From Escherichia coli (GTDB lineage: Bacteria > Pseudomonadota > Gammaproteobacteria > Enterobacterales > Enterobacteriaceae): a stretch of 64,000 nucleotides of DNA. The stretch lies in the NCBI RefSeq assembly GCF_044647545.1, contig NZ_CP172818.1; one strand, 5' to 3'. This document shows, one piece after another, positions 15,779-48,180 of this stretch. The notes beneath the pieces are model-generated. The model saw nothing but the letters and a program-made list of their open reading frames with translations, was not told the DNA's origin and made no database searches. The position numbers and the translations under genes are program-made. Position 1 is the stretch's first letter; each line of letters starts with the position of its first letter.

Positions 15779-17305
15779 ATGAAAAAAGCCATAGCATATA
15801 TGCGATTTTCATCACCAGGTCAGATGTCTGGCGACTCATTAAACCGACAGAGAAGACTTATTGCTGAATGGTTAAAGGTAAATAGTGATTATTATCTTGA
15901 TACCATAACATATGAAGATTTAGGATTAAGTGCATTCAAAGGAAAGCATGCACAATCAGGAGCTTTTTCGGAATTTTTAGATGCTATAGAGCATGGTTAT
16001 ATATTGCCAGGAACTACATTGTTAGTTGAAAGTCTGGACAGACTTTCAAGAGAAAAAGTCGGTGAAGCGATTGAACGTCTGAAATTGATTTTGAATCACG
16101 GTATTGATGTTATAACTCTTTGCGACAATACAGTCTATAATATTGACTCTTTGAATGAGCCATATTCATTAATAAAAGCCATACTTATAGCACAAAGGGC
16201 AAATGAAGAAAGCGAGATAAAGTCAAGTCGGGTTAAATTATCATGGAAGAAAAAACGGCAGGATGCACTGGAATCAGGTACGATTATGACGGCGTCTTGT
16301 CCGAGATGGCTCTCCTTAGATGACAAAAGAACGGCTTTTGTTCCAGACCCCGACAGGGTGAAAACTATTGAGCTAATTTTTAAACTCAGGATGGAAAGGC
16401 GCTCATTGAATGCAATAGCCAAGTATTTAAATGATCATGCTGTAAAGAATTTCTCAGGAAAAGAAAGTGCATGGGGACCTTCTGTAATTGAAAAATTATT
16501 AGCGAATAAAGCTCTGATAGGTATATGCGTACCTTCATATCGTGCAAGAGGTAAAGGAATAAGTGAAATCGCTGGCTATTATCCCAGAGTCATATCAGAT
16601 GATTTGTTTTACGCTGTACAGGAAATTCGGTTGGCACCTTTTGGTATTAGCAATAGTAGCAAAAATCCTATGTTGATAAATCTACTTCGAACAGTTATGA
16701 AGTGCGAGGCTTGTGGTAATACCATGATTGTTCATGCGGTATCTGGAAGTTTGCATGGCTATTATGTTTGTCCGATGAGAAGACTGCATCGATGTGACAG
16801 GCCATCAATAAAGAGAGATTTGGTTGATTATAATATCATTAATGAGTTGCTTTTTAATTGTAGTAAAATCCAACCAGTTGAAAACAAGAAAGATGCTAAT
16901 GAAACTTTAGAGTTGAAAATTATTGAGCTCCAGATGAAAATTAATAATTTAATTGCTGCATTATCTGTTGCGCCTGAAGTTACCGCTATAGCAGAAAAAA
17001 TCAGAGTATTAGATAAGGAATTACGAAGGGCTTCTGTATCATTAAAAACTTTGAAGAGTAAAGCGGTGAGTTCACTTGGTGATTTTCATGCTATTGACTT
17101 AACCAGTAAAAATGGGCGAGAGCTATGTCGTACACTTGCCTATAAAACATTCGAAAAAATCATAATCAATACAGATAATAAAACCTGTGATATCTATTTT
17201 ATGAATGGCATTGTTTTTAAACACTATCCTTTAATGAAAACAATATCCGCCCAGCAGGCGATAAGTACTCTCAAATATATGGTTGATGGTGAGGTTTATT
17301 TTTGA
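15779..17305 (+). CDS. ybcK: large serine recombinase family protein
   Basis: 508-aa ORF; N-terminal resolvase-like catalytic motif (AYMRFSSPGQ), central recombinase domain, Cys-rich zinc ribbon (CEACGN...CPMRRLHRCD), C-terminal coiled-coil-like region. Confidence 0.85.
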   Translation: MKKAIAYMRFSSPGQMSGDSLNRQRRLIAEWLKVNSDYYLDTITYEDLGLSAFKGKHAQSGAFSEFLDAIEHGYILPGTTLLVESLDRLSREKVGEAIERLKLILNHGIDVITLCDNTVYNIDSLNEPYSLIKAILIAQRANEESEIKSSRVKLSWKKKRQDALESGTIMTASCPRWLSLDDKRTAFVPDPDRVKTIELIFKLRMERRSLNAIAKYLNDHAVKNFSGKESAWGPSVIEKLLANKALIGICVPSYRARGKGISEIAGYYPRVISDDLFYAVQEIRLAPFGISNSSKNPMLINLLRTVMKCEACGNTMIVHAVSGSLHGYYVCPMRRLHRCDRPSIKRDLVDYNIINELLFNCSKIQPVENKKDANETLELKIIELQMKINNLIAALSVAPEVTAIAEKIRVLDKELRRASVSLKTLKSKAVSSLGDFHAIDLTSKNGRELCRTLAYKTFEKIIINTDNKTCDIYFMNGIVFKHYPLMKTISAQQAISTLKYMVDGEVYF

Positions 17306-34430: not shown

Positions 34431-37403
34431 TTACCAGTGCACTCCAATGGTGAGAAACGCATTGTTGCGCTCTCCGTTACGTTGATTAATCGCCTTAAAG
34501 GTATGTTGATACTCGACGCCGAGACTGACTTTGTGCGGCCAGGCGTCGTAGTGCGTCTCGCCGGTCCAGATATTCCAGCGGACCCCGACACCGCCAAGCT
34601 GCGCGCCCTGAGTGCCTTTATCACGATAGCCGTTGTCCTGAACGTGAGCGTAAGGCTCAATAGTCTGTCCGTTAGCTACCTTCTGATGCCAGCTGACGCG
34701 ATAATCTGCCGTCCACGCCTGAATATCCTGGCGGATATATTGCGCTGCATCGAGGTACAGGTTTTGGGCAAACCAGCCTGAACCGTTCGGGTGCCATTCG
34801 TCGCTGTATTTGCCGCCATTAAAGAATGAGGCGCTGGCGCGCAGCATGGTATCGGATGCGCCATTTTGCCCGTTCAGCGGCAACTGCTGTTCGACGGCGA
34901 GGAAAAAGATCTGATCGCGCAGCGGCTTCCAGCGCAGACCGGTGCCGGACATCGGATTTTTCACCGGCATCATCACCCCGTTTTCTCCAGTATCGGCAAA
35001 TACACGGCTGTAAACCGAGAGCAGGTCGCCTTCCAGCAGCATATTGCGTCCGATGCGATACTCGGCTTCCAGTTGCCCGTAGCTACGATAGCTTTTCCCT
35101 GGCGCTGCGCCGCCGACATTATTGTTAGCGGTACTTATTGCGCCGGAACGCAAGCCGATAGAAGAATCGAAACTGAACGTCCAGCGGCGACCGACCTCCT
35201 CATGCAGACGGCGGAAATTGAAGCGTTGCTGATTTTGCTCTGGGGTCAGTGGGGTTATCAGCGCCTGATTATCAATGTCATCAATCACCAGCCGGGCGTA
35301 GTGCTGCGTCGCAGGCATGTCATCCAGACGCTGGTTCACGTAGGCCAGTTGTCGGATAAGTGCCGGATCGTCCGGTAGCCCTTTATGCGCCTGTTCGAGC
35401 ATTTCCCGCGACTGTGCGATATCACCGCTATCCCACAAGGCGTAACCGAGCGCTGCCTGGGTGTTGCTATTATTCGGTTCCAGTTCCAGCGCGGCGCGCA
35501 AATCACTCACCGCCGCCGGGACATTATGACGTTGGCGATAAATTGTCGCCCGCGCAACGTAAGCGTTGGCAGAAGGCGCAATATTGATTGAGCGCGTGAG
35601 ATCGTTCAGTGCGAGTTCCGGCTGACCAGGAATGTAACGTTGCGCATGCAGCCACCAGTAGAGGGCATTGTTTCCCAGCCCACGTTGTTCTGCCTGCTGA
35701 AGCCAGCGATCGCGAGCCGCACCATTTCCTGCCGCCTGGGCGGTATTGGCAGCAGCAAGCAGATCCTCATTGCTCATGTCGTGAAGACTGATTTTCTGCC
35801 AGGCCGCCAGTGCGGTGGCGTAGTCCTCAACCTGATACGCCTGATAGGCTACCGCACGATGTTGCCAGGCGTTCGGTTGTCGTTGTTCGGCCTGAAGCCA
35901 TGCATACAACGCCACACCGGGTAGCGTGTCCCGATAACACTTTGCCAGACGGTTCCAGGCGGCGGCATCGTAGGAAGGCGACATATCGCCCAGCAAGCGA
36001 ACTATTGCCGGGCAATTATCTGCAATACCCGGCAACTGACTTTGCCACTGACGTTGCTCCGCCAGCGGTAAAGGTTTCGATAAAATCGCCACCTTCGCCG
36101 GCGTTGCCAGGTAAGGATGACTTTCCAGCAGAGACGCCAGTCGCGCCATTAACGTCTGGCTGACACGCGCATCGCCCTGGAAAGGATAGCGTTGCAGCAA
36201 TAAATCGGCAGCTTCGCGTGACTGCTCGTTCTGCATCAGTTGCCAGGTCAGTTGATCCAGGCGGGTAAGATTTGCCGGTTCTTGCTGATACAGCAATCGT
36301 GCCAGACGCAGAGCTTCAGCCTTGTTATGGGTCGCTACGCTAACGGTATAACGCTCCTCAAGCATTTCATTGGCGGGGAGGGTGGCGAGCAGTTTTTGCG
36401 CTGCGTCGTACTGACCTTCTTTTAACAGCACCGGTAGCGTCGCGCCAACAACATACTGGCGGTTATCGGCAAACTGTACCGTATAATTCGCCAACGCCTG
36501 AACGGGGTTGACGCTGTATTTAGATAACAGATAGAGCCAACTTTTCTCTTGTGCGTCCGTGGTAAACAGCGGCTTATTTTCAATGAGATAATGCTGGAGG
36601 CGCGCTTTTTCGCCACGATAAGCCAGCGCGGTCGCGTAAGTAATATATGACTGAGGATCGGTGAAGATCCCCTGTGATTGCAGCGCCAGGATCCGATCAT
36701 CCAGCTGCGCGGCAAGAAGCACGTCAAACCACTGACGGCGTTCTGCCGCGCTTAATGTGTTCTGCTGGCGTGCTTCATTATATAGCGTATCTGCCTGGGA
36801 CCATTGTTTCAGGTAGATTGCGCGTTGCAGCAGATCGGTTCGCAACGTTTTTCCTTCCGGCGATGCAGCAAACGTCGCATCGTTTAGTTGCGCTCTGGCG
36901 ACAGGTAATTGTGCCAGCCGCAGGGCATTCTGCCCGACTTCACTGCGACAACGCAGGGTCGGCGCAGCGTCGCACGCTTTTTGCTGGGCAAGCAGTTCTT
37001 CAACAGTCGTAACGCTTTTCACTTCAACTGGAATAGCCGCCAGACTGCGCTCAAGTCGGGCATCTCCTGGGTGACGTTTCAGTTGATCCTCAAGCAACAG
37101 CCGCGCCCGGTCATCATGACCAAAATGGCGATAGGCTTCCGCAAGGTATAAAGTCAGCGGAATATTATCCGGCACCTGCTGGTGTATATATTCAAATTCG
37201 CGGATGGCGGTTGCTTCGTCGTTATTTTTCTGTGCCTTCAGCGCCTTGTCGAGACGGGGATAAATAACGAAATGGCGATAATCGCTCAGCCCCAGCTCTT
37301 CTGCGCTGGTGCCGATATTGTCTGCGAGTGCGCTGGTACTCAATAAAGACGTCAGCAGTAAACCAGACCATCCGATGACGCGATTAAGGTTATTCTCCTT
37401 CAT
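34431..37403 (-). CDS. nfrA: phage N4 adsorption protein A (TPR-repeat outer-membrane protein)
   Basis: 990 aa from MKENNLNRVIGWSGLLLTSLLSTSALA; overlaps nfrB stop. Confidence 0.9.
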   Translation of the reverse strand: MKENNLNRVIGWSGLLLTSLLSTSALADNIGTSAEELGLSDYRHFVIYPRLDKALKAQKNNDEATAIREFEYIHQQVPDNIPLTLYLAEAYRHFGHDDRARLLLEDQLKRHPGDARLERSLAAIPVEVKSVTTVEELLAQQKACDAAPTLRCRSEVGQNALRLAQLPVARAQLNDATFAASPEGKTLRTDLLQRAIYLKQWSQADTLYNEARQQNTLSAAERRQWFDVLLAAQLDDRILALQSQGIFTDPQSYITYATALAYRGEKARLQHYLIENKPLFTTDAQEKSWLYLLSKYSVNPVQALANYTVQFADNRQYVVGATLPVLLKEGQYDAAQKLLATLPANEMLEERYTVSVATHNKAEALRLARLLYQQEPANLTRLDQLTWQLMQNEQSREAADLLLQRYPFQGDARVSQTLMARLASLLESHPYLATPAKVAILSKPLPLAEQRQWQSQLPGIADNCPAIVRLLGDMSPSYDAAAWNRLAKCYRDTLPGVALYAWLQAEQRQPNAWQHRAVAYQAYQVEDYATALAAWQKISLHDMSNEDLLAAANTAQAAGNGAARDRWLQQAEQRGLGNNALYWWLHAQRYIPGQPELALNDLTRSINIAPSANAYVARATIYRQRHNVPAAVSDLRAALELEPNNSNTQAALGYALWDSGDIAQSREMLEQAHKGLPDDPALIRQLAYVNQRLDDMPATQHYARLVIDDIDNQALITPLTPEQNQQRFNFRRLHEEVGRRWTFSFDSSIGLRSGAISTANNNVGGAAPGKSYRSYGQLEAEYRIGRNMLLEGDLLSVYSRVFADTGENGVMMPVKNPMSGTGLRWKPLRDQIFFLAVEQQLPLNGQNGASDTMLRASASFFNGGKYSDEWHPNGSGWFAQNLYLDAAQYIRQDIQAWTADYRVSWHQKVANGQTIEPYAHVQDNGYRDKGTQGAQLGGVGVRWNIWTGETHYDAWPHKVSLGVEYQHTFKAINQRNGERNNAFLTIGVHW

Positions 37404-39627
37404 TTTCGGACTCCAGTTGCGCAACCTTTTCTGTGTTTAAACCTGCTTTGAGTAATAGTGATTGCATCGAAACTTGTAATTCGCGTTGAATTGTCAGAAC
37501 GCGATCCAACGTTTCCTGGCTGATAACGCCTTCGGTGACCAAAAACTTGCCGAGCGGCAGAGAACTGCGTTCATGGTGCAATAACAACACGTTAATTGCT
37601 GAACGATTAATATGACCGAGCGTGGTCAGTATTTCGGCGAACAGGAACTGATGCGGCACATATTGCCGCCAGATTTCACCGGCCTGCTGTTCCGTGAGCC
37701 ACTGATGCTGAACCGCATTGTACAACATTGCCCGCGGATCGTGACCGCGTCGGCGCGCATACCAGTGGCGTAACCCCGTGACAATTTGTCCCCGCAGAAC
37801 AATGACGTAACGCACTTTGCGTCCGACTTTACGCGTCAGGGCCGCCAGCGAAACCGGGTCAATACCATCTTCACTGCCGACAATTAACTCATCATTTTCC
37901 AGACGCAGCGGCAGCACTGCATAATGCAGCGCCACGGAGGCCGGCATCTCGGCAATCAGTGATGAAGGGATCTGCCAGGCGTCGATCGACTCCCACGCCA
38001 CGCCGTTTTGCTCTGCCAGCGCCTGTGCCAGCTGCTCGGCGCTAATCAGCCCCTGCATCAGCATTGAACCGCCAAGGCGTAGACCTTCGACGCGATTACG
38101 CAGTGCTGTATCGAGTTGTTCTTCAGTGATGACCTGATTTTCCAGCAGAATTTGACCTAACGGGCGCAACGAGCGGGTATCGCCAGTCACGCTGGGGAAG
38201 TCATGCGTTGTTTTATCCCACGCCACGCGACGTGGATCGCCGTGTTGAAGTACCTGTTTTAACGCGCGCCAGTTGGCCATGAAGTTAATCAGGTTGCCCC
38301 AGAAAAGACGCAGGACAGATAGTAGCCCCTGCGTCAGGCCGTAGTAGCCAGTGACGAAAATCACCCGCTGCACGATGCGGTTAACCATCAAGCCAAAGTT
38401 TAGCCACAGCAGGGTCATTAACCATGCGCTGCCGCTGAAAATAGAAAGGAAATGCCAGGCATCGGGCCACAAACTTTCATACGCCAGTAACAGCAAAAGC
38501 TGGATCATCACCAGCATCGCGAGGAAGCTGACAAAGTTACTGATTGCCCCTTTGCGGTCGCGCCAGAGAAAGTAGTTCAGCGTCAGGCTGGAGGTCCATT
38601 TGTGGGTTTTAAAGCCCTGGAAAACAATGCCGATGATCCAGCGAGATTTTTGTCGAACCGCCGTCGAAAAGGTATCGGGGAAATATTCGCGCACGCAGAT
38701 CATGTTTGACGTCCGCGCGTGCTGTAAAAATTTACGCTGCTCGCGTTCTTTGGCTTCGTCCACCACCGGAAAACGGACAAAAATTTCCGTCATACCTTTT
38801 TCTTTCAGGCGGAAACCAATGTCGTAATCTTCAGTAAGACTCTGCACGTCGAAAGCAATACCGTCACCGTCAGCTAACAGTGCGGTCACGGCGCGGCGGC
38901 TGAAACAAGTACCGACACCTGCGCTGGGCACCTGTCCGGCGAGGGCTTCACGCACCGGAACATCTTTGCCATGCAGTTCTGAAAACTCATCAATGTAAGT
39001 CATGCTGGTGAAGTGCGTCCATTCGCGTTCGAATGGGTATACCGGGATCTGAATCAGATCTTTACGCTCGACCAGATAGTTGAACAGACGCAATTCCATC
39101 GGTGAAATTACGTCTTCGGCGTCATGCAGAATAAAACCAGCAAAAGCGAAATTGGCGCTACGCTCAAACTGGGTGATGGCGTCCAGCACGTTGTTCAGGC
39201 AGTCGGCTTTGCTGGTGGGGCCAGGACGCGCGCAGACTACCTTATGCACGTTTGGGAAGCGAGCGCACACTTCGTCAACATCACGCTGAGTATCGGGGTC
39301 GTTGGGGTAGGTGCCAACAAAGATATGATAGTTTTCATAGTCGAGCGTGGTCGCCGCCAGCTCGGCCATATTGCCGATGACGCCCGTTTCATTCCACGCC
39401 GGAACCATAATCGCTAACGGTTTTTCATCTGGTTTATACAGTTCGCGGTAACTCATTCGCGGGTAGCGGCGATAAACACTCAACTTGCGTTTAATGCGGC
39501 GTACCCAGTAGACGACATCAATAAAAAAATCGTCCAGCCCGCTGATGAACATGATGACCGCTAACGTTATCGCGATTACTTTTAAGCCATATAGCCAGGT
39601 TGCAAAAACATCAAGAAGCCAGTCCAC
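37390..39627 (-). CDS. nfrB: phage N4 adsorption protein B (inner-membrane glycosyltransferase family 2)
   Basis: 745-aa ORF with N-terminal transmembrane segments and glycosyltransferase domain. Confidence 0.9.
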   Translation of the reverse strand: MDWLLDVFATWLYGLKVIAITLAVIMFISGLDDFFIDVVYWVRRIKRKLSVYRRYPRMSYRELYKPDEKPLAIMVPAWNETGVIGNMAELAATTLDYENYHIFVGTYPNDPDTQRDVDEVCARFPNVHKVVCARPGPTSKADCLNNVLDAITQFERSANFAFAGFILHDAEDVISPMELRLFNYLVERKDLIQIPVYPFEREWTHFTSMTYIDEFSELHGKDVPVREALAGQVPSAGVGTCFSRRAVTALLADGDGIAFDVQSLTEDYDIGFRLKEKGMTEIFVRFPVVDEAKEREQRKFLQHARTSNMICVREYFPDTFSTAVRQKSRWIIGIVFQGFKTHKWTSSLTLNYFLWRDRKGAISNFVSFLAMLVMIQLLLLLAYESLWPDAWHFLSIFSGSAWLMTLLWLNFGLMVNRIVQRVIFVTGYYGLTQGLLSVLRLFWGNLINFMANWRALKQVLQHGDPRRVAWDKTTHDFPSVTGDTRSLRPLGQILLENQVITEEQLDTALRNRVEGLRLGGSMLMQGLISAEQLAQALAEQNGVAWESIDAWQIPSSLIAEMPASVALHYAVLPLRLENDELIVGSEDGIDPVSLAALTRKVGRKVRYVIVLRGQIVTGLRHWYARRRGHDPRAMLYNAVQHQWLTEQQAGEIWRQYVPHQFLFAEILTTLGHINRSAINVLLLHHERSSLPLGKFLVTEGVISQETLDRVLTIQRELQVSMQSLLLKAGLNTEKVAQLESENEGE

Positions 39628-39776: not shown

Positions 39777-41219
39777 TTAAGCGGGTAGTTTGATCATAAA
39801 CCTTGTTCCCCGCGCATCTGACGTTACTGCAACCGTGCCTTTATGCGCGACAACAATTGATTTCACTATCGCCAGCCCAATGCCGCTACCTTCGCCTTTT
39901 CGCTGGCGGGAAGGATCAACGCGGTAGAAACGGTCAAACAATCGCGGTAAGTGTTCGGGCGCAATGGGCGTACCGGGGTTTTCGACGGAAACTTGCACCT
40001 GGTGATCGACCGTCTGGCAGCGCACAACAATTGCCTCTCCGGGTGGCGTATAACGCAGGGCGTTCGAAAGCAGGTTGCTTAACGCCCGACGCAACATCAG
40101 CGGATCGCCCGCAACCTGACACTCGTCACCAACAAACCGCAACTCCACGCCGCGATCTTCCGCTAACGCCTCGAAAAAATCGAACACTTTGCCGACTTCA
40201 TCCGCCAGGTTGAGCATTTTCTTTTCGGGGATTAACTGGTTGTTATCGGCCTGAGCGAGAAACAGCATATCGCTGACCATTTTCGCCATTCGAGTCAGCT
40301 CTTCGAGATTAGAGTAGAGCACATCTTCCAGCTCCTTCTGACTGCGCGACTGGCTGAGGGCGATTTCCGTTTGCGTTATGAGATTCGTAATCGGCGTGCG
40401 AATTTCGTGAGCGATATCCGCTGAGAAATTGGACTGGCGGGTAAAGACATCCTCGATACGCTCGATCATATGGTTGAACGACAGCACCAGTTGTTCGAGT
40501 TCAATGGGCACGGTCTGTGGATCGAGGCGAACGTCGAGATCTTTCGAGGTAATGTTCTGGATTTGACGGCTGACGCTGCGAATTGGCGCGTGGCCTTTAT
40601 GTACCGCCAGCAGCACGATAAAGACGATCAGGATGCTGATGATCGATGCGGTCATAATAAGTTTATTCATCAAATCATTTATGTAATGAAGATGAAAATC
40701 GATCGAAAGCGCGATGTAGAGCGTATAAATCGGTTTGCCGTCCACCAACGGGCCAACCGGCAAGTTAATCATCCGCCAGTTGCTGTGTTCCATATGCCCG
40801 TGACCGTGGCCTGGCATCATAATCGTCGGGCCGGAAAGGAGATACACCTCGCCACCCTGAGCGTCTTTATCGGGTATGGCGTCACGCGTAAACTCGCGGA
40901 TATCCGGCGCACCGGGGGAGTGATACACCGTTTTGCCGTGGCTATCTGCCAGGGAAATCAACACGTTGGAATAACCACTGACGATATCTTCCAGCGTCAT
41001 TAAGCGTCGGGCTTGCGTCTCGTCAGGATGATTAAGTACCCGTTCAAGGGTGGCGCTAATTTCTTTTAAATCATTAATATCCTGCTCGGCAAAATGCACT
41101 TTCACTGAGTGGATCATGATCCATGCAAAGGCGAAAAACGCCGCGATGGTGGCCAGGCTGATAAAAAAGGTCAGACGGGTTGCCAGCGAAAACGGGCGCT
41201 GAAATGGCTTACTGACCAT
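39777..41219 (-). CDS. cusS: copper/silver-sensing histidine kinase CusS
   Basis: 480 aa from [10 protein letters not shown]; HisKA and HATPase motifs; overlaps cusR. Confidence 0.9.
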
Positions 41220-41892
41220 CCGGCACCTCAAGCATATAGCCCACGCCGCGCACGGTCTGAATCAGCTTCGGCTCAAAGTCGTTGTCGATTTTGCCGCGTA
41301 GCCGCTTCACCGCCACATCAATGGCGTTAGTGTCGCTGTCGAAATTCATGTCCCACACCTGCGAGGCGATAAGCGAGCGGGGCAGCACTTCACCCTGATG
41401 GCGGAGGAAAAACTCCAGCAAAGTAAATTCTTTACTGGTCAACGTGATGCGCGTGCCGCTACGGGTGACTTTGCGGCTGACGAGATCGACCATCAGATCG
41501 GCAACCTGAAACTGACTTTCGATAATCACCGCCGCCCCGCGCCGCAGTAGAGTGCGCACCCGCGCCAGCAGTTCAGCAAAAGCGAACGGCTTAACCAGAT
41601 AGTCATCCGCCCCCAACTCCAGCCCCTTGACGCGATGTTCAATGGTGCCAAGCGCGGTAAGCAACAGAATCGGCATCCCCTTATTGGCGGAACGCAACAT
41701 GCGCACGATATCCCAGCCGTTCACGTCCGGCAGCATAATATCGAGGATTATCAGATCATAATCACCGGTCATCGCCAGATGGTAGCCATTCAGCCCGTTG
41801 TCGGCCAAATCGACCACAAAACCGGCTTCGGTTAACCCTTTGGTCAAGTATTCTCCGGTTTTCTTTTCATCTTCGACAATCAACAGTTTCAT
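41209..41892 (-). CDS. cusR: OmpR-family response regulator CusR
   Basis: 227-aa [19 protein letters not shown]...; receiver plus winged-helix domains. Confidence 0.93.
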
Positions 41893-41957
41893 ATTTCCTC
41901 CGCATGTTGCCCGGGCAATTCTAGAGTAGCGGGATCAGATGGCAATCGCTTATTGGC

Positions 41958-41979
41958 AAAATGACAATTTTGTCATTTT
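41958..41979. promoter_or_regulatory. CusR box palindrome AAAATGACAATTTTGTCATTTT in the cusR-cusC divergent promoter
   Basis: Perfect 22-bp palindrome seen in sequence; matches the known CusR operator. Confidence 0.7.
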
Positions 41980-42048
41980 CCTGTCACCGGAAAATCAGAG
42001 CCTGGCGAGTAAAGTTGGCGGCATAAAATCACCAGAAATTATGAGCCT

Positions 42049-43437
42049 ATGTCTCCTTGTAAACTTCTGCCATTTTGTGTGGCCCTTGCGCTAACCGGTT
42101 GTTCACTGGCACCGGATTATCAGCGTCCGGCAATGCCCGTGCCGCAGCAGTTCTCACTCAGCCAGAACGGCCTGGTTAACGCAGCAGATAACTACCAGAA
42201 CGCGGGCTGGCGCACCTTTTTTGTTGATAATCAGGTGAAGACGCTGATTAGCGAGGCGTTGGTGAATAACCGGGATTTACGCATGGCGGCGCTGAAAGTG
42301 CAGGAGGCACGGGCGCAATATCGTCTGACCGATGCCGACCGCTACCCACAGCTCAATGGCGAGGGCAGCGGCAGCTGGAGCGGTAATCTTAAAGGGAATA
42401 CCGCCACGACACGGGAGTTTTCGACCGGCCTTAACGCCAGCTTTGACCTCGATTTTTTCGGGCGCTTAAAGAACATGAGCGAAGCCGAGCGTCAAAATTA
42501 TTTAGCTACTGAGGAAGCTCAGCGCGCGGTGCATATTCTGCTGGTTTCTAATGTCGCGCAAAGCTATTTCAATCAGCAACTGGCGTATGCGCAAGTGCAA
42601 ATAGCCGAAGAAACGCTGCGTAATTATCAGCAGTCATATGCATTTGTCGAAAAACAACTGTTGACCGGTAGCAGCAATGTTCTGGCGCTAGAACAGGCTC
42701 GCGGGGTGATAGAAAGTACCCGCAGCGACATCGCTAAACGTCAGGGGGAACTGGCGCAGGCGAATAATGCATTGCAACTGTTATTGGGAAGCTACGGCAA
42801 GCTGCCGCAAGCGCAGACAGTAAACAGCGACAGCCTGCAAAGCGTTAAATTACCGGCGGGCTTGTCGTCGCAAATCTTATTGCAGCGCCCTGATATTATG
42901 GAAGCTGAACACGCGTTAATGGCGGCTAATGCCAATATTGGCGCTGCACGCGCGGCATTTTTCCCGTCTATCAGCCTGACCAGCGGAATATCGACCGCCA
43001 GTAGCGATCTGTCGTCATTATTTAACGCCAGCAGCGGGATGTGGAATTTTATACCCAAAATTGAGATCCCCATTTTTAATGCCGGACGCAACCAGGCCAA
43101 TCTGGATATCGCCGAAATTCGCCAGCAGCAGTCGGTGGTGAATTATGAACAGAAAATCCAGAATGCCTTTAAAGAAGTGGCAGATGCGCTGGCATTACGT
43201 CAAAGCCTGAACGATCAAATCAGCGCCCAGCAGCGTTATCTGGCATCGCTGAAAATTACTTTGCAACGGGCGCGGGCATTATATCAGCACGGCGCAGTAA
43301 GTTATCTGGAAGTGCTGGATGCCGAGCGTTCTTTATTTGCAACCCGACAAACTTTACTTGACCTGAATTATGCCCGTCAGGTTAACGAAATTTCTTTATA
43401 TACCGCCTTAGGGGGCGGTTGGCAGCAAAATTTTTAA
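42049..43437 (+). CDS. cusC: outer-membrane efflux lipoprotein CusC
   Basis: 462-aa ORF with lipobox LTGC; OMF family. Confidence 0.9.
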   Translation: MSPCKLLPFCVALALTGCSLAPDYQRPAMPVPQQFSLSQNGLVNAADNYQNAGWRTFFVDNQVKTLISEALVNNRDLRMAALKVQEARAQYRLTDADRYPQLNGEGSGSWSGNLKGNTATTREFSTGLNASFDLDFFGRLKNMSEAERQNYLATEEAQRAVHILLVSNVAQSYFNQQLAYAQVQIAEETLRNYQQSYAFVEKQLLTGSSNVLALEQARGVIESTRSDIAKRQGELAQANNALQLLLGSYGKLPQAQTVNSDSLQSVKLPAGLSSQILLQRPDIMEAEHALMAANANIGAARAAFFPSISLTSGISTASSDLSSLFNASSGMWNFIPKIEIPIFNAGRNQANLDIAEIRQQQSVVNYEQKIQNAFKEVADALALRQSLNDQISAQQRYLASLKITLQRARALYQHGAVSYLEVLDAERSLFATRQTLLDLNYARQVNEISLYTALGGGWQQNF

Positions 43438-43453
43438 CTCCAGGAGAGAATAA

Positions 43454-43786
43454 ATGAAAAAAGCACTGCAAGTCGCGATGTTCAGTCTGTTTACCGTTAT
43501 TGGCTTTAATGCCCAGGCTAACGAACATCATCATGAAACCATGAGCGAAGCACAACCACAGGTTATTAGCGCCACTGGCGTGGTAAAAGGTGTTGATCTG
43601 GAAAGCAAAAAAATCACCATCCATCACGATCCGATTGCTGCCGTGAACTGGCCGGAGATGACCATGCGCTTTACCATCACCCCGCAGACGAAAATGAGCG
43701 AAATTAAAACCGGCGACAAAGTGGCGTTTAATTTTGTCCAGCAGGGCAACCTTTCTTTATTACAGGATATTAAAGTCAGCCAGTAA
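43454..43786 (+). CDS. cusF: periplasmic copper/silver chaperone CusF
   Basis: 110-aa ORF with signal peptide and His/Met-rich metal site. Confidence 0.9.
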   Translation: MKKALQVAMFSLFTVIGFNAQANEHHHETMSEAQPQVISATGVVKGVDLESKKITIHHDPIAAVNWPEMTMRFTITPQTKMSEIKTGDKVAFNFVQQGNLSLLQDIKVSQ

Positions 43787-43801
43787 CCCAGGTTTAATGA
43801 G

Positions 43802-45025
43802 ATGAAAAAAATCGCGCTTATTATCGGCAGCATGATTGCGGGCGGTATTATTTCTGCGGCAGGTTTTACCTGGTTTGCAAAGGCTGAACCGCCCGCAGAA
43901 AAAACGCCGACCGCAGAACGTAAAATCTTATTCTGGTACGACCCGATGTATCCCAATACGCGGTTCGATAAACCAGGTAAATCGCCGTTTATGGATATGG
44001 ATCTGGTGCCGAAATATGCCGATGAAGAGAGTTCTGCGTCTGGTGTACGCATTGACCCGACCCAGACGCAGAATCTGGGGGTGAAAACGGCGACCGTCAC
44101 GCGCGGGCCGCTGACTTTTGCCCAGAGTTTCCCGGCGAATGTCAGTTACAACGAGTATCAGTATGCCATTGTGCAGGCTCGCGCTGCCGGGTTTATCGAT
44201 AAGGTGTATCCGCTTACCGTGGGCGATAAAGTACAAAAGGGCACACCGCTTCTCGACCTGACCATTCCCGACTGGGTGGAAGCGCAGAGTGAGTATTTAC
44301 TGCTGCGCGAAACCGGCGGTACGGCGACCCAGACTGAAGGCATTCTTGAGCGGCTGAGACTGGCGGGAATGCCGGAGGCGGATATTCGCCGCCTGATCGC
44401 CACGCAAAAAATCCAGACTCGCTTTACGCTCAAAGCGCCCATTGATGGCGTGATCACCGCGTTTGATCTGCGCGCGGGAATGAATATCGCCAAAGATAAC
44501 GTGGTCGCGAAAATTCAGGGTATGGACCCGGTGTGGGTCACTGCTGCGATCCCGGAGTCCATCGCCTGGCTGGTGAAAGATGCCTCGCAGTTTACGCTCA
44601 CCGTTCCGGCGCGACCTGATAAAACACTCACCATTCGCAAATGGACGCTGCTACCCGGCGTGGATGCCGCGACCCGCACGCTGCAACTGCGTCTGGAAGT
44701 CGACAACGCCGACGAGGCGCTAAAACCGGGCATGAACGCCTGGTTGCAACTCAATACCGCCAGCGAACCGATGCTGCTCATTCCGTCACAGGCGCTGATT
44801 GATACCGGCAACGAACAGCGGGTGATTACCGTTGATGCTGACGGGCGCTTTGTACCGAAACGCGTTGCCGTTTTCCAGGCATCGCAAGGCGTCACCGCGT
44901 TACGCTCTGGTCTGGCGGAAGGTGAAAAGGTGGTTTCCAGCGGCCTGTTCCTGATTGATTCTGAAGCCAATATTTCTGGCGCACTGGAGCGGATGCGCTC
45001 TGAAAGTGCTACCCATGCGTATTGA
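43802..45025 (+). CDS. cusB: membrane fusion protein CusB
   Basis: 407-aa ORF; operon position. Confidence 0.9.
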   Translation: MKKIALIIGSMIAGGIISAAGFTWFAKAEPPAEKTPTAERKILFWYDPMYPNTRFDKPGKSPFMDMDLVPKYADEESSASGVRIDPTQTQNLGVKTATVTRGPLTFAQSFPANVSYNEYQYAIVQARAAGFIDKVYPLTVGDKVQKGTPLLDLTIPDWVEAQSEYLLLRETGGTATQTEGILERLRLAGMPEADIRRLIATQKIQTRFTLKAPIDGVITAFDLRAGMNIAKDNVVAKIQGMDPVWVTAAIPESIAWLVKDASQFTLTVPARPDKTLTIRKWTLLPGVDAATRTLQLRLEVDNADEALKPGMNAWLQLNTASEPMLLIPSQALIDTGNEQRVITVDADGRFVPKRVAVFQASQGVTALRSGLAEGEKVVSSGLFLIDSEANISGALERMRSESATHAY

Positions 45026-45036
45026 GGGAATAACCA

Positions 45037-48000
45037 ATGATTGAATGGATTATTCGTCGCTCGGTGGCGAACCGTTTTCTGGTGCTGATGGGCGCGTTGT
45101 TTCTGAGCATCTGGGGCACCTGGACCATCATTAACACGCCAGTGGATGCGCTGCCGGATCTCTCTGATGTACAGGTGATTATTAAAACCAGCTATCCCGG
45201 TCAGGCACCGCAAATCGTTGAAAATCAGGTGACTTATCCGCTAACCACCACCATGTTGTCGGTACCTGGCGCGAAGACAGTGCGCGGTTTCTCGCAGTTT
45301 GGCGACTCTTATGTGTATGTCATTTTTGAAGATGGCACCGATCCGTACTGGGCGCGCTCGCGGGTGCTGGAGTACCTCAATCAGGTACAGGGGAAGCTGC
45401 CTGCGGGAGTCAGCGCCGAGCTGGGGCCAGACGCCACGGGCGTTGGCTGGATCTATGAATATGCACTGGTAGATCGCAGCGGTAAGCACGATCTGGCCGA
45501 TTTACGCTCATTGCAGGACTGGTTTCTCAAATATGAGCTAAAAACCATCCCTGACGTTGCGGAAGTGGCGTCGGTGGGCGGTGTGGTGAAAGAGTATCAG
45601 GTGGTTATCGATCCTCAGCGCCTGGCGCAGTATGGCATCAGTCTCGCCGAAGTAAAAAGCGCGCTGGATGCTTCAAACCAGGAAGCGGGCGGTTCGTCGA
45701 TCGAACTGGCGGAAGCGGAATATATGGTGCGCGCCAGCGGATATCTGCAAACGCTCGACGACTTTAATCACATCGTTTTAAAAGCCAGTGAAAATGGCGT
45801 GCCCGTTTATCTGCGTGATGTTGCGAAGGTCCAGGTTGGCCCGGAGATGCGCCGGGGCATTACCGAACTGAACGGCGAAGGCGAAGTGGCGGGCGGGGTG
45901 GTGATCCTGCGTTCCGGCAAAAACGCCCGTGAAGTGATCGCTGCCGTGAAGGACAAACTGGAAACGCTGAAAAGCAGTCTGCCGGAAGGCGTGGAGATAG
46001 TTACAACATACGATCGCAGCCAGCTCATTGACCGCGCCATTGACAACCTCAGTGGCAAGTTGCTGGAAGAGTTTATTGTGGTGGCGGTAGTCTGTGCGCT
46101 GTTTCTCTGGCATGTGCGCTCGGCGCTGGTGGCGATTATTTCGTTGCCGCTGGGGTTGTGTATTGCTTTTATTGTCATGCACTTTCAGGGACTGAACGCC
46201 AATATTATGTCGCTGGGCGGTATTGCGATTGCCGTCGGGGCGATGGTCGATGCCGCTATCGTCATGATCGAGAATGCGCATAAACGGCTGGAAGAGTGGC
46301 AGCACCAGCATCCTGACGCCACGCTGGATAATAAAACGCGCTGGCAGGTGATTACCGATGCATCTGTTGAAGTGGGGCCGGCGCTGTTTATCAGTCTGCT
46401 GATTATCACGCTGTCGTTTATCCCGATCTTCACCCTGGAAGGGCAGGAAGGTCGTCTGTTTGGCCCGCTGGCGTTCACCAAAACCTATGCGATGGCGGGC
46501 GCGGCGCTACTGGCGATCGTAGTGATCCCGATCCTGATGGGCTACTGGATCCGTGGCAAAATTCCGCCGGAAAGCAGTAACCCGCTCAATCGCTTTTTGA
46601 TTCGTGTTTATCATCCGCTGTTGCTGAAAGTACTGCACTGGCCGAAAACCACGCTGTTGGTGGCAGCGCTTTCGGTGCTGACGGTACTCTGGCCGCTCAA
46701 TAAAGTTGGCGGGGAATTTTTACCGCAGATCAATGAAGGCGACTTGTTGTATATGCCATCGACGCTGCCGGGGATTTCCGCAGCAGAGGCGGCGAGCATG
46801 CTGCAAAAAACCGACAAGCTGATTATGAGCGTACCGGAAGTGGCGCGGGTATTTGGCAAAACCGGGAAAGCGGAAACCGCCACCGATTCAGCTCCACTGG
46901 AGATGGTAGAAACGACTATCCAGCTTAAGCCACAAGATCAGTGGCGGCCAGGCATGACGATGGACAAAATCATTGAGGAACTGGATAACACCGTGCGTCT
47001 GCCGGGGCTGGCGAATCTGTGGGTGCCGCCAATTCGTAACCGTATCGATATGCTCTCGACTGGCATTAAAAGCCCTATCGGCATTAAAGTTTCCGGCACT
47101 GTGCTGGCGGATATCGACACGATGGCGGAGCAAATTGAAGAAGTGGCGCGAACGGTGCCAGGCGTAGCTTCTGCTCTTGCCGAGCGGCTGGAAGGTGGGC
47201 GCTATATCAACGTTGAGATTAACCGTGAAAAAGCCGCGCGTTACGGTATGACGGTGGCGGATGTGCAATTGTTTGTGAAATCTGCGGTGGGCGGGGCGAT
47301 GGTTGGCGAAACGGTGGAAGGGATTGCCCGTTATCCAATTAATCTGCGTTATCCGCAAAGCTGGCGCGATAGCCCGCAGGCACTGCGCCAGTTGCCGATC
47401 CTCACGCCGATGAAGCAGCAAATCACCCTGGCAGACGTGGCCGACGTTAAAGTCTCTACCGGACCGTCGATGCTGAAAACCGAGAATGCGCGCCCGACGA
47501 GCTGGATTTATATCGATGCCCGCGATCGTGACATGGTGTCGGTGGTTCACGATCTGCAAAAAGCGATAGCTGAAAAAGTGCAGTTAAAACCGGGCACCAG
47601 CGTGGCATTCTCCGGGCAGTTCGAGCTACTGGAGCGCGCCAACCATAAGCTGAAACTGATGGTGCCGATGACGCTGATGATCATCTTCGTGCTGTTGTAC
47701 CTGGCGTTCCGTCGGGTGGGCGAAGCGTTGCTGATTATCAGCAGCGTACCGTTTGCGCTGGTGGGCGGCATCTGGTTGCTGTGGTGGATGGGCTTTCATC
47801 TTTCCGTGGCGACGGGCACCGGTTTTATTGCCCTTGCCGGGGTCGCCGCCGAATTTGGCGTGGTGATGCTGATGTATTTACGTCACGCCATAGAGGCCGA
47901 GCCGTCGTTGAATAATCCGCAAACATTCAGCGAGCAGAAGCTGGATGAGGCGTTGTATCACGGCGCGGTCCTGCGCGTGCGCCCGAAAGCGATGACGGTG

Positions 48001-48180
48001 GCGGTGATTATCGCTGGTCTGCTGCCGATTCTGTGGGGAACGGGAGCAGGTTCAGAGGTGATGAGCCGGATTGCCGCGCCGATGATTGGCGGCATGATCA
48101 CCGCGCCTTTGCTATCGCTGTTTATTATCCCGGCGGCGTATAAGCTGATGTGGCTGCACCGACATCGGGTACGGAAATAA
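45037..48180 (+). CDS. cusA: RND-family copper/silver efflux pump CusA
   Basis: 1047-aa ORF, 12-transmembrane RND architecture. Confidence 0.93.

Follow-up and report, generated by a model that had tools for sequence, protein, structure and literature searches.

The CusR operator between cusR and cusC in Escherichia coli and a candidate third half-site at the cusC promoter

The cus locus and its genes

The stretch of Escherichia coli DNA considered here, called the window below, is 64,000 nucleotides long in full and carries the genes of a copper and silver efflux system. Two operons leave a common spacer in opposite directions. One encodes a two-component regulatory system, and the other encodes the efflux proteins. 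The genes are arranged as follows.

39777..41219, minus strand: cusS, Cu(I)/Ag(I) sensor histidine kinase (NF007345, 982 bits, profile positions 1-480 of 482)
41209..41892, minus strand: cusR, OmpR/PhoB-family response regulator of 227 aa (NCBIfam equivalog NF007346, 507.9 bits, positions 1-227 of 227)
42049..48180, plus strand: cusCFBA efflux operon, with full-length NCBIfam matches (NF007347, NF007348, NF007303 and TIGR00914 cover cusCFBA)
42049-43437, plus strand: cusC, full length
43454-43786, plus strand: cusF, full-length NCBIfam match
43802-45025, plus strand: cusB, full-length NCBIfam match
45037-48180, plus strand: cusA, full-length NCBIfam match

In the NCBIfam profile search, all six cus open reading frames span their family profiles from end to end. 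The CusR protein is 100% identical (a rounded tblastn value) to the annotated CusR of E. coli FDAARGOS_497. For cusS, the open reading frame made by the program reaches 41231, where it begins with TTG; the start equivalent to that of E. coli K-12 gives a protein of 480 aa. Gene order follows the K-12 layout and agrees with annotated E. coli records, with nfrB upstream and pheP downstream of the cus genes.

Some parts of the locus differ between strains. In K-12, cusC and cusF are separated by an additional 126 bp (locus L039, 8960-9131), an insertion that resembles an ERIC/IRU element and may be one. The window has no such insertion at the corresponding place (43420-43454), and its spacer there is 16 bp long. 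CusC has 457 aa in K-12, as a result of a TGG-to-TGA change, compared with 462 aa in the window. Upstream of cusS, FDAARGOS_497 has vgrG (type VI secretion) and Rhs genes (L001, 1-4135), whereas nfrB is found there in the window (37390-39627) and in K-12. On its left side, then, the cus locus does not have the same boundary in all E. coli.

A reading of this DNA made from the sequence only had pointed to a palindrome between cusR and cusC, and had taken it as confirmation that the copper/silver regulon is intact. The locus is indeed intact at the level of its open reading frames, but this is shown by the full-length genes and not by the palindrome. E. coli O19:H7 strain 730V1 illustrates the difference (L042, 3100-5900). 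It retains the box, although IS903B has entered the DNA about 25 bp downstream and cusC is split by ISKpn26. Since 730V1 keeps the box with cusC disrupted, the box alone is no proof of an intact regulon; the strain offers a natural example of an operator that has lost the operon it serves.

The inverted repeat as a CusR operator

The spacer between cusR and cusC occupies 41893-42048 (156 bp). The reported 22-mer, AAAATGACAATTTTGTCATTTT, is located exactly at 41958-41979, with 65 nt on the cusR side and 69 nt on the cusC side. Its description as centred between the two genes holds, the box being 2 bp off the midpoint. Its description as a perfect 22-bp palindrome holds for the two 10-nt arms, which are 100% complementary, but not for the central T41968 and T41969, which are unpaired, so that 20 of the 22 positions pair. 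The element is thus a 10-2-10 inverted repeat that differs from its own reverse complement only at these two bases. Pairing does not continue beyond the arms, where C41957 stands opposite C41980. The parts of the box are these.

41958-41967: left arm of the CusR/HprR box, AAAATGACAA, a perfect inverted arm
41968-41969: centre of the box, TT, non-complementary
41970-41979: right arm of the box, TTGTCATTTT, a perfect inverted arm

An inverted repeat of this quality is more than chance would produce. Perfect inverted repeats whose arms measure 10 nt or more and are no more than 4 nt apart occur at three loci in the 64 kb, against 0.4 expected (the mean of 100 first-order Markov simulations). The pattern AAAATGACAANNTTGTCATTTT has one copy in the window, even if three mismatches are allowed, and no match in 100 shuffles of the window that preserve dinucleotide composition. 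Further CusR boxes above chance are absent from the window, whether they are sought with the 22-mer (up to three mismatches), its 14-mer core (up to two) or the 6-4-6 core (up to two). In this strain, the 64 kb of the window contain a single copy, and a 30-mer searched in E. coli genomes is found at a median of one place and a maximum of two.

The window also contains other inverted repeats. The longest perfect one, TTGAAAGTCTGGACAGACTTTCAA at 16026-16049, has 11-nt arms and lies within an open reading frame of 508 aa (15779-17305, plus strand). Another, CCGGATGCGAGTTTTCGCATCCGG at 2876-2899, is rich in G+C and has 10-nt arms around a 4-nt loop.

An inverted repeat may act as a nucleic-acid hairpin, in the form of an RNA stem-loop, a terminator or a DNA cruciform, instead of as a protein-binding site. 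The predicted RNA fold of 41950-41990, at -10.8 kcal/mol and with a z-score of -3.0 against shuffled sequences, appears at first to speak for such a role. Yet this z-score is a trivial consequence of the inverted repeat itself, and the stem is rich in A and U. The scan for terminators gives no terminator-like site here, and Rfam gives no match at E<=1. The repeat also lies upstream of both predicted transcription starts, so that it would not be transcribed. Finally, it is the sequence of the arms that is conserved, and compensatory changes are absent from the loci compared. A hairpin or terminator role was rejected on these grounds, and there is hardly any probability left for it.

The interpretation as a binding site for CusR, the regulator of the copper/silver two-component system, starts from the published box. 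The 22-mer had been said to match the CusR operator, and comparison bears this out: AAAATGACAATTTTGTCATTTT agrees with the published CusR box AAAATGACAAnnTTGTCATTTT at 20 of 20 specified positions, without a mismatch, at 41958-41979. One general point counts against a CusR reading of a symmetric site, namely that regulators of the OmpR/PhoB family usually bind direct repeats. The structures considered include no solved CusR-DNA complex; the closest are the DNA-binding domain of PcoR (2jzy) and other regulators of the OmpR/PhoB family.

The published CusR box is placed between cusRS and cusC(F)BA (PMC11195947), and later papers attribute the CusR box of E. coli K-12 to Yamamoto & Ishihama 2005. 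The K-12 box has the same bases throughout and the same position within a cusR-cusC spacer of the same 156 bp. Compared with the K-12 spacer, the window differs at a single base, C for T at 41980, directly after the box.

Several kinds of experiment have been published for this spacer. In K-12, ChIP-chip with CusR gave the cusR-cusC spacer as the sole chromosomal peak (bioRxiv 10.1101/2020.08.17.251918), and in gSELEX both CusR and its paralogue HprR bound the spacer (PMC8249747). Phosphorylated CusR is described as turning on both operons from the CusR box (PMC10920338). The copper-dependent activity of the cusC promoter has been recorded in published reporter assays and by Reg-Seq. Binding and copper-dependent activation have thus been shown by others for K-12, whose box is identical in sequence to that of the window. 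What is established here is the identity of the box sequence, its position, its conservation and the intactness of the cognate genes.

The reading as a CusR site is supported because the 22-mer fits the published consensus, lies in the expected place and stands beside full-length cognate genes. The stretch 41958-41979 is almost certainly the operator of the copper/silver regulator CusR, also recognised by HprR. As such, a CusR box between cusR and cusC is a textbook operator and already known.

Conservation of the box

Within E. coli, the spacer is nearly universal. It is present at 95% identity or more in 5333 of 5426 complete genomes. Of 5334 matching E. coli records, 5148 have the box and 8 nt of its left flank without any change, 184 have one mismatch and 2 have two mismatches; in the single one-mismatch record that was inspected, the change is at 41957, outside the box. 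An example of a rare variant within the box is strain N96, in which AAAATGACAGTATTGTCATTTT carries A41967G and T41969A, so that the last base of the left arm before the centre and one of the two central bases are changed. The neighbouring position 41980 is more variable. For a 42-nt core, 3335 of the 5334 records are identical to the window (with C41980), and 1999 differ by one or two bases; the variants inspected have T at 41980.

To follow the box beyond the species, the arm pattern was scanned through one genome per species, in about 100,000 species. The 20 arm bases have 37 exact matches. Because these loci were selected for exact arms, they cannot be used to measure how far the arms diverge. 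For 14 of the 37, a CusR homologue (61-100% identity) is encoded a few kb away at most; these loci belong to Escherichia, Citrobacter, Shimwellia, Providencia (six loci), Psychromonas, Acinetobacter and a Rhodocyclaceae genome. Absence from homologous loci had been named in the sequence-only reading as evidence that would speak against the site; instead, both arms are found unchanged beside cusR homologues in several genera. The central dinucleotide of these cusR-linked boxes varies (TT, AT, CT, CG, CA and AA), as the “nn” of the consensus predicts. At least two further matches adjoin copper-type genes, a multicopper oxidase and a CusB-like gene, and another (L036) adjoins a Met/His-rich open reading frame without a Pfam match.

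The box does not always occupy the same place. In Shimwellia (L006, 5520-5541) and Acinetobacter (L038, 1803-1824) it lies downstream of cusS, not in a divergent cusR-cusC spacer, and in Shimwellia it precedes, on the same strand, a DUF305 gene and cusF-, cusB- and cusA-like genes. In Citrobacter koseri NCTC10786 (L035, 3257-3773), the cusR homologue appears as two tblastn pieces that cover about 173 of 227 residues; this may reflect a frameshift or a truncation.

Other matches raise the question of whether the same palindrome could belong to another family of regulators, such as a LacI-type repressor, or be a chance product of AT-rich sequence. Three matches with a CG centre, AAAATGACAACGTTGTCATTTT, adjoin LacI-family genes in a Comamonadaceae metagenome-assembled genome, Xylophilus and Klebsiella spallanzanii, and an unrelated regulator family may use the identical palindrome at these sites. 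The remaining matches are mostly in AT-rich metagenome-assembled genomes, whose flanking open reading frames are listed without a protein-family assignment. In the window, no LacI-family gene stands beside the site, its neighbours being cusR and cusC, and the centre is TT, not CG. A chance palindrome would not explain the lack of matches in the 100 shuffles of the window, nor the fact that the site is conserved in 5333 E. coli genomes and is kept next to cusR in particular in other genera. For the box of the window, either origin is extremely improbable.

The use of the 20-base arm pattern as a universal marker of copper loci was considered and rejected, given the LacI-linked matches and the matches in AT-rich genomes without copper context. 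Since the same arms occur in such places, the 20-mer alone is not diagnostic, and it is the context that decides.

A candidate third half-site at the cusC promoter

The spacers of Escherichia, C. koseri, a sil plasmid and Providencia were aligned. Four invariant blocks stand out amid diverged flanks: the box, a TGTCA at +11, TAnnnT and, on the minus strand, TAGAAT. The elements of the two promoters in the window are the following.

41918..41945, minus strand: sigma-70-like promoter of cusR, with a -35 hexamer TTGCCA (41945-41940), a 16-nt spacer and a -10 hexamer TAGAAT (41923-41918)
41971..41988, plus strand: Pho-box-like direct repeat TGTCATTTTCCTGTCACC, which combines the right arm of the box with the third half-site
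41982..41987, plus strand: third half-site TGTCAC, a direct repeat of the TGTCA of the right arm, 11 bp downstream on the cusC side
42010..42015, plus strand: putative -10 hexamer of cusC, TAAAGT, 22 nt past the third half-site, assigned from aligned conservation

On the cusR side, the predicted promoter has 10 of 12 consensus matches in the consensus scan, and its -10 hexamer, which reads ATTCTA on the plus strand, is the same in all aligned spacers from Escherichia to Providencia and in the sil plasmid. Transcription of cusR would start near 41911, with the box centre about 57 bp upstream of this predicted start. On the cusC side, transcription would start near 42022. With this start, the centre of the box would fall at about -53.5, and the third half-site would span roughly -40 to -35. 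A literature search returned no published start sites for cusC or cusR, and both starts are placed by promoter consensus and conservation.

The third half-site, TGTCA at 41982-41986, is invariant in the spacer alignment, and NGTCA occurs in the same register in about ten lineages. It has no symmetric counterpart on the cusR side, where the corresponding hexamer is CAATAA. A further repeat lies in the same part of the spacer: a 20-nt direct repeat of 80% identity, in two copies 45 bp apart, TCACCGGAAAATCAGAGCCT at 41984-42003 and TCACCAGAAATTATGAGCCT at 42029-42048. Its second copy ends at the ATG of cusC, and in the alignment it is present in Escherichia spacers only.

The same layout is found in a set of 14 promoters, which includes silC, silE, a probable pcoE promoter, hiuH of K-12 and promoters from distant genera. 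A 16-bp inverted-repeat core is followed by 5 nt, a hexamer of the form NGTCAN or TGTAAG, 22 nt and a -10 hexamer. In 12 of the 14 promoters compared, the distance from the third half-site to a TAnnnT hexamer is exactly 22 nt. The pcoE promoter is called probable because it was assigned by its position downstream of pcoS, at a locus without an annotated pcoE gene.

Comparison with related operators shows what the cus site shares with them and where it differs. The core of the cus box, ATGACA-ATTT-TGTCAT at 41961-41976, fits the 6-4-6 consensus ATKACANNNNTGTMAT without a mismatch. This is the consensus of the AgrR box of Cupriavidus metallidurans and of the CopR/PcoR inverted-repeat sites; the cus core, ATGACAATTTTGTCAT, fits it exactly. 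The E. coli box differs from the AgrR, CopR and PcoR sites in its longer conserved A/T arms (AAA...TTT).

On plasmids, the cores at silR-silC, silE and the probable pcoE promoter are ATGACAACATTGTCAT, ATGACAAAGATGTCAT and GTGACAAAAATGTCAT. All three promoters show the cus-like succession of 5 nt, half-site, 22 nt and -10 hexamer. The sil plasmid box at silC differs from the 22-mer by one arm base, with TTAT instead of TTTT. The sil and pco promoters are served by SilR and PcoR, which are paralogues of CusR, and CusR has been reported to control pcoE directly.

Another relative is the HprR/CusR box between hprR and hiuH, CATTACAAAATTGTAATG, at a locus outside the window. Like the cus box, it has 6-4-6 symmetry and a divergent layout of regulator and target; a third half-site is likewise in phase, and the TAnnnT -10 hexamer follows after 22 nt. 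Its half-sites, however, read TTACA/TGTAA compared with TGACA/TGTCA at cus. HprR has been reported to recognise the CusR sequence with a different affinity.

One property of the third half-site concerns the protein that reads it. Its sequence follows the type of the arms: it is TGTCA at cus, sil and silE, AGTCA at the probable pcoE promoter and TGTAA at hiuH. That it tracks the arm type suggests that the CusR/HprR-type regulator itself reads it.

A different reader is PhoB. Together with the right arm, the third half-site forms two exact TGTCA repeats 11 bp apart (TGTCA-N6-TGTCA), TGTCATTTTCCTGTCA at 41971-41986. The resulting TGTCATTTTCCTGTCACC is a good match to the Pho box and corresponds to the PhoB site TGTCATTTTTCTGTCACC found at cusR/cusC by ChIP-seq in K-12 (PMC10294691). 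In the same study, cusC had 208 reads in the wild type compared with 50 in a phoB deletion, about 4-fold lower. The K-12 site has T where the window has C at 41980, inside the spacer of the repeat.

These observations could be taken to mean that the site is mainly a PhoB operator, on which phosphorylated PhoB would activate cusC under phosphate limitation, and that the palindrome is incidental. The Pho box shares just the right arm with the CusR box, however, and a reading by PhoB only leaves the left arm, equally invariant across genera, unexplained. The Pho-box-like site ends 21 nt upstream of the predicted -10 hexamer of cusC, about one helical turn farther than in classic pho promoters. 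The TGTAA of hiuH repeats the arm sequence of its own box, which points to a reader of the CusR/HprR type. The published binding of CusR and HprR and the copper dependence of the cusC promoter also stand against it. A purely PhoB-directed site is very unlikely, and PhoB is better regarded as a further protein that uses the site than as an alternative to CusR. The likeliest reading is that regulators of the CusR type would recognise the third half-site in their own right, with PhoB making use of these bases at cusC as well.

A precedent for such an arrangement is AgrR, a related regulator of the same subfamily, for which activation needs an in-phase, promoter-proximal direct repeat beside the 6-4-6 inverted repeat (PMC7380067). 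AgrR targets and cusC both carry this extra repeat. The need for it has been shown for AgrR, and by analogy it may apply at cusC. The literature consulted contains no description of a three-half-site geometry for CusR of E. coli. Because of the AgrR precedent, such a result would be incremental even if true.

The elements can be combined into a model for CusR. Periplasmic Cu(I) or Ag(I) activates CusS, which phosphorylates CusR. Phosphorylated CusR binds the symmetric box, halfway along the 156-bp spacer, activating cusCFBA to the right and probably reinforcing cusRS to the left. The near-consensus sigma-70 promoter of cusR would supply basal expression. The third half-site may extend the operator toward the -35 region, where the promoter-proximal protomer could contact RNA polymerase, and a regulator seated on three half-sites would form a mixed assembly, both head-to-head and head-to-tail. 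The third half-site and the right arm together would make up the PhoB site, giving a phosphate input.

Under this model, the functional operator of cusC would be larger than the 22-bp box. It would consist of three half-sites at a fixed distance of 22 nt from the -10 hexamer, would be shared across promoters and would double as a PhoB site. This proposal is tentative, and is held with slightly less than even confidence.

For annotation, the box says no more than that this is a standard chromosomal E. coli cus locus with an unaltered regulatory region. A single point looks further ahead, the third half-site with its rigid spacing, which the cus, sil, pco and hiuH promoters have in common, and this is a modest lead. 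If regulators of the CusR family need this half-site, the published box under-describes their operator. A larger operator, if true, would matter for the prediction of copper and silver regulons and for cross-talk with PhoB and HprR. One short element at cusC would then integrate copper/silver, oxidative (through HprR) and phosphate signals.
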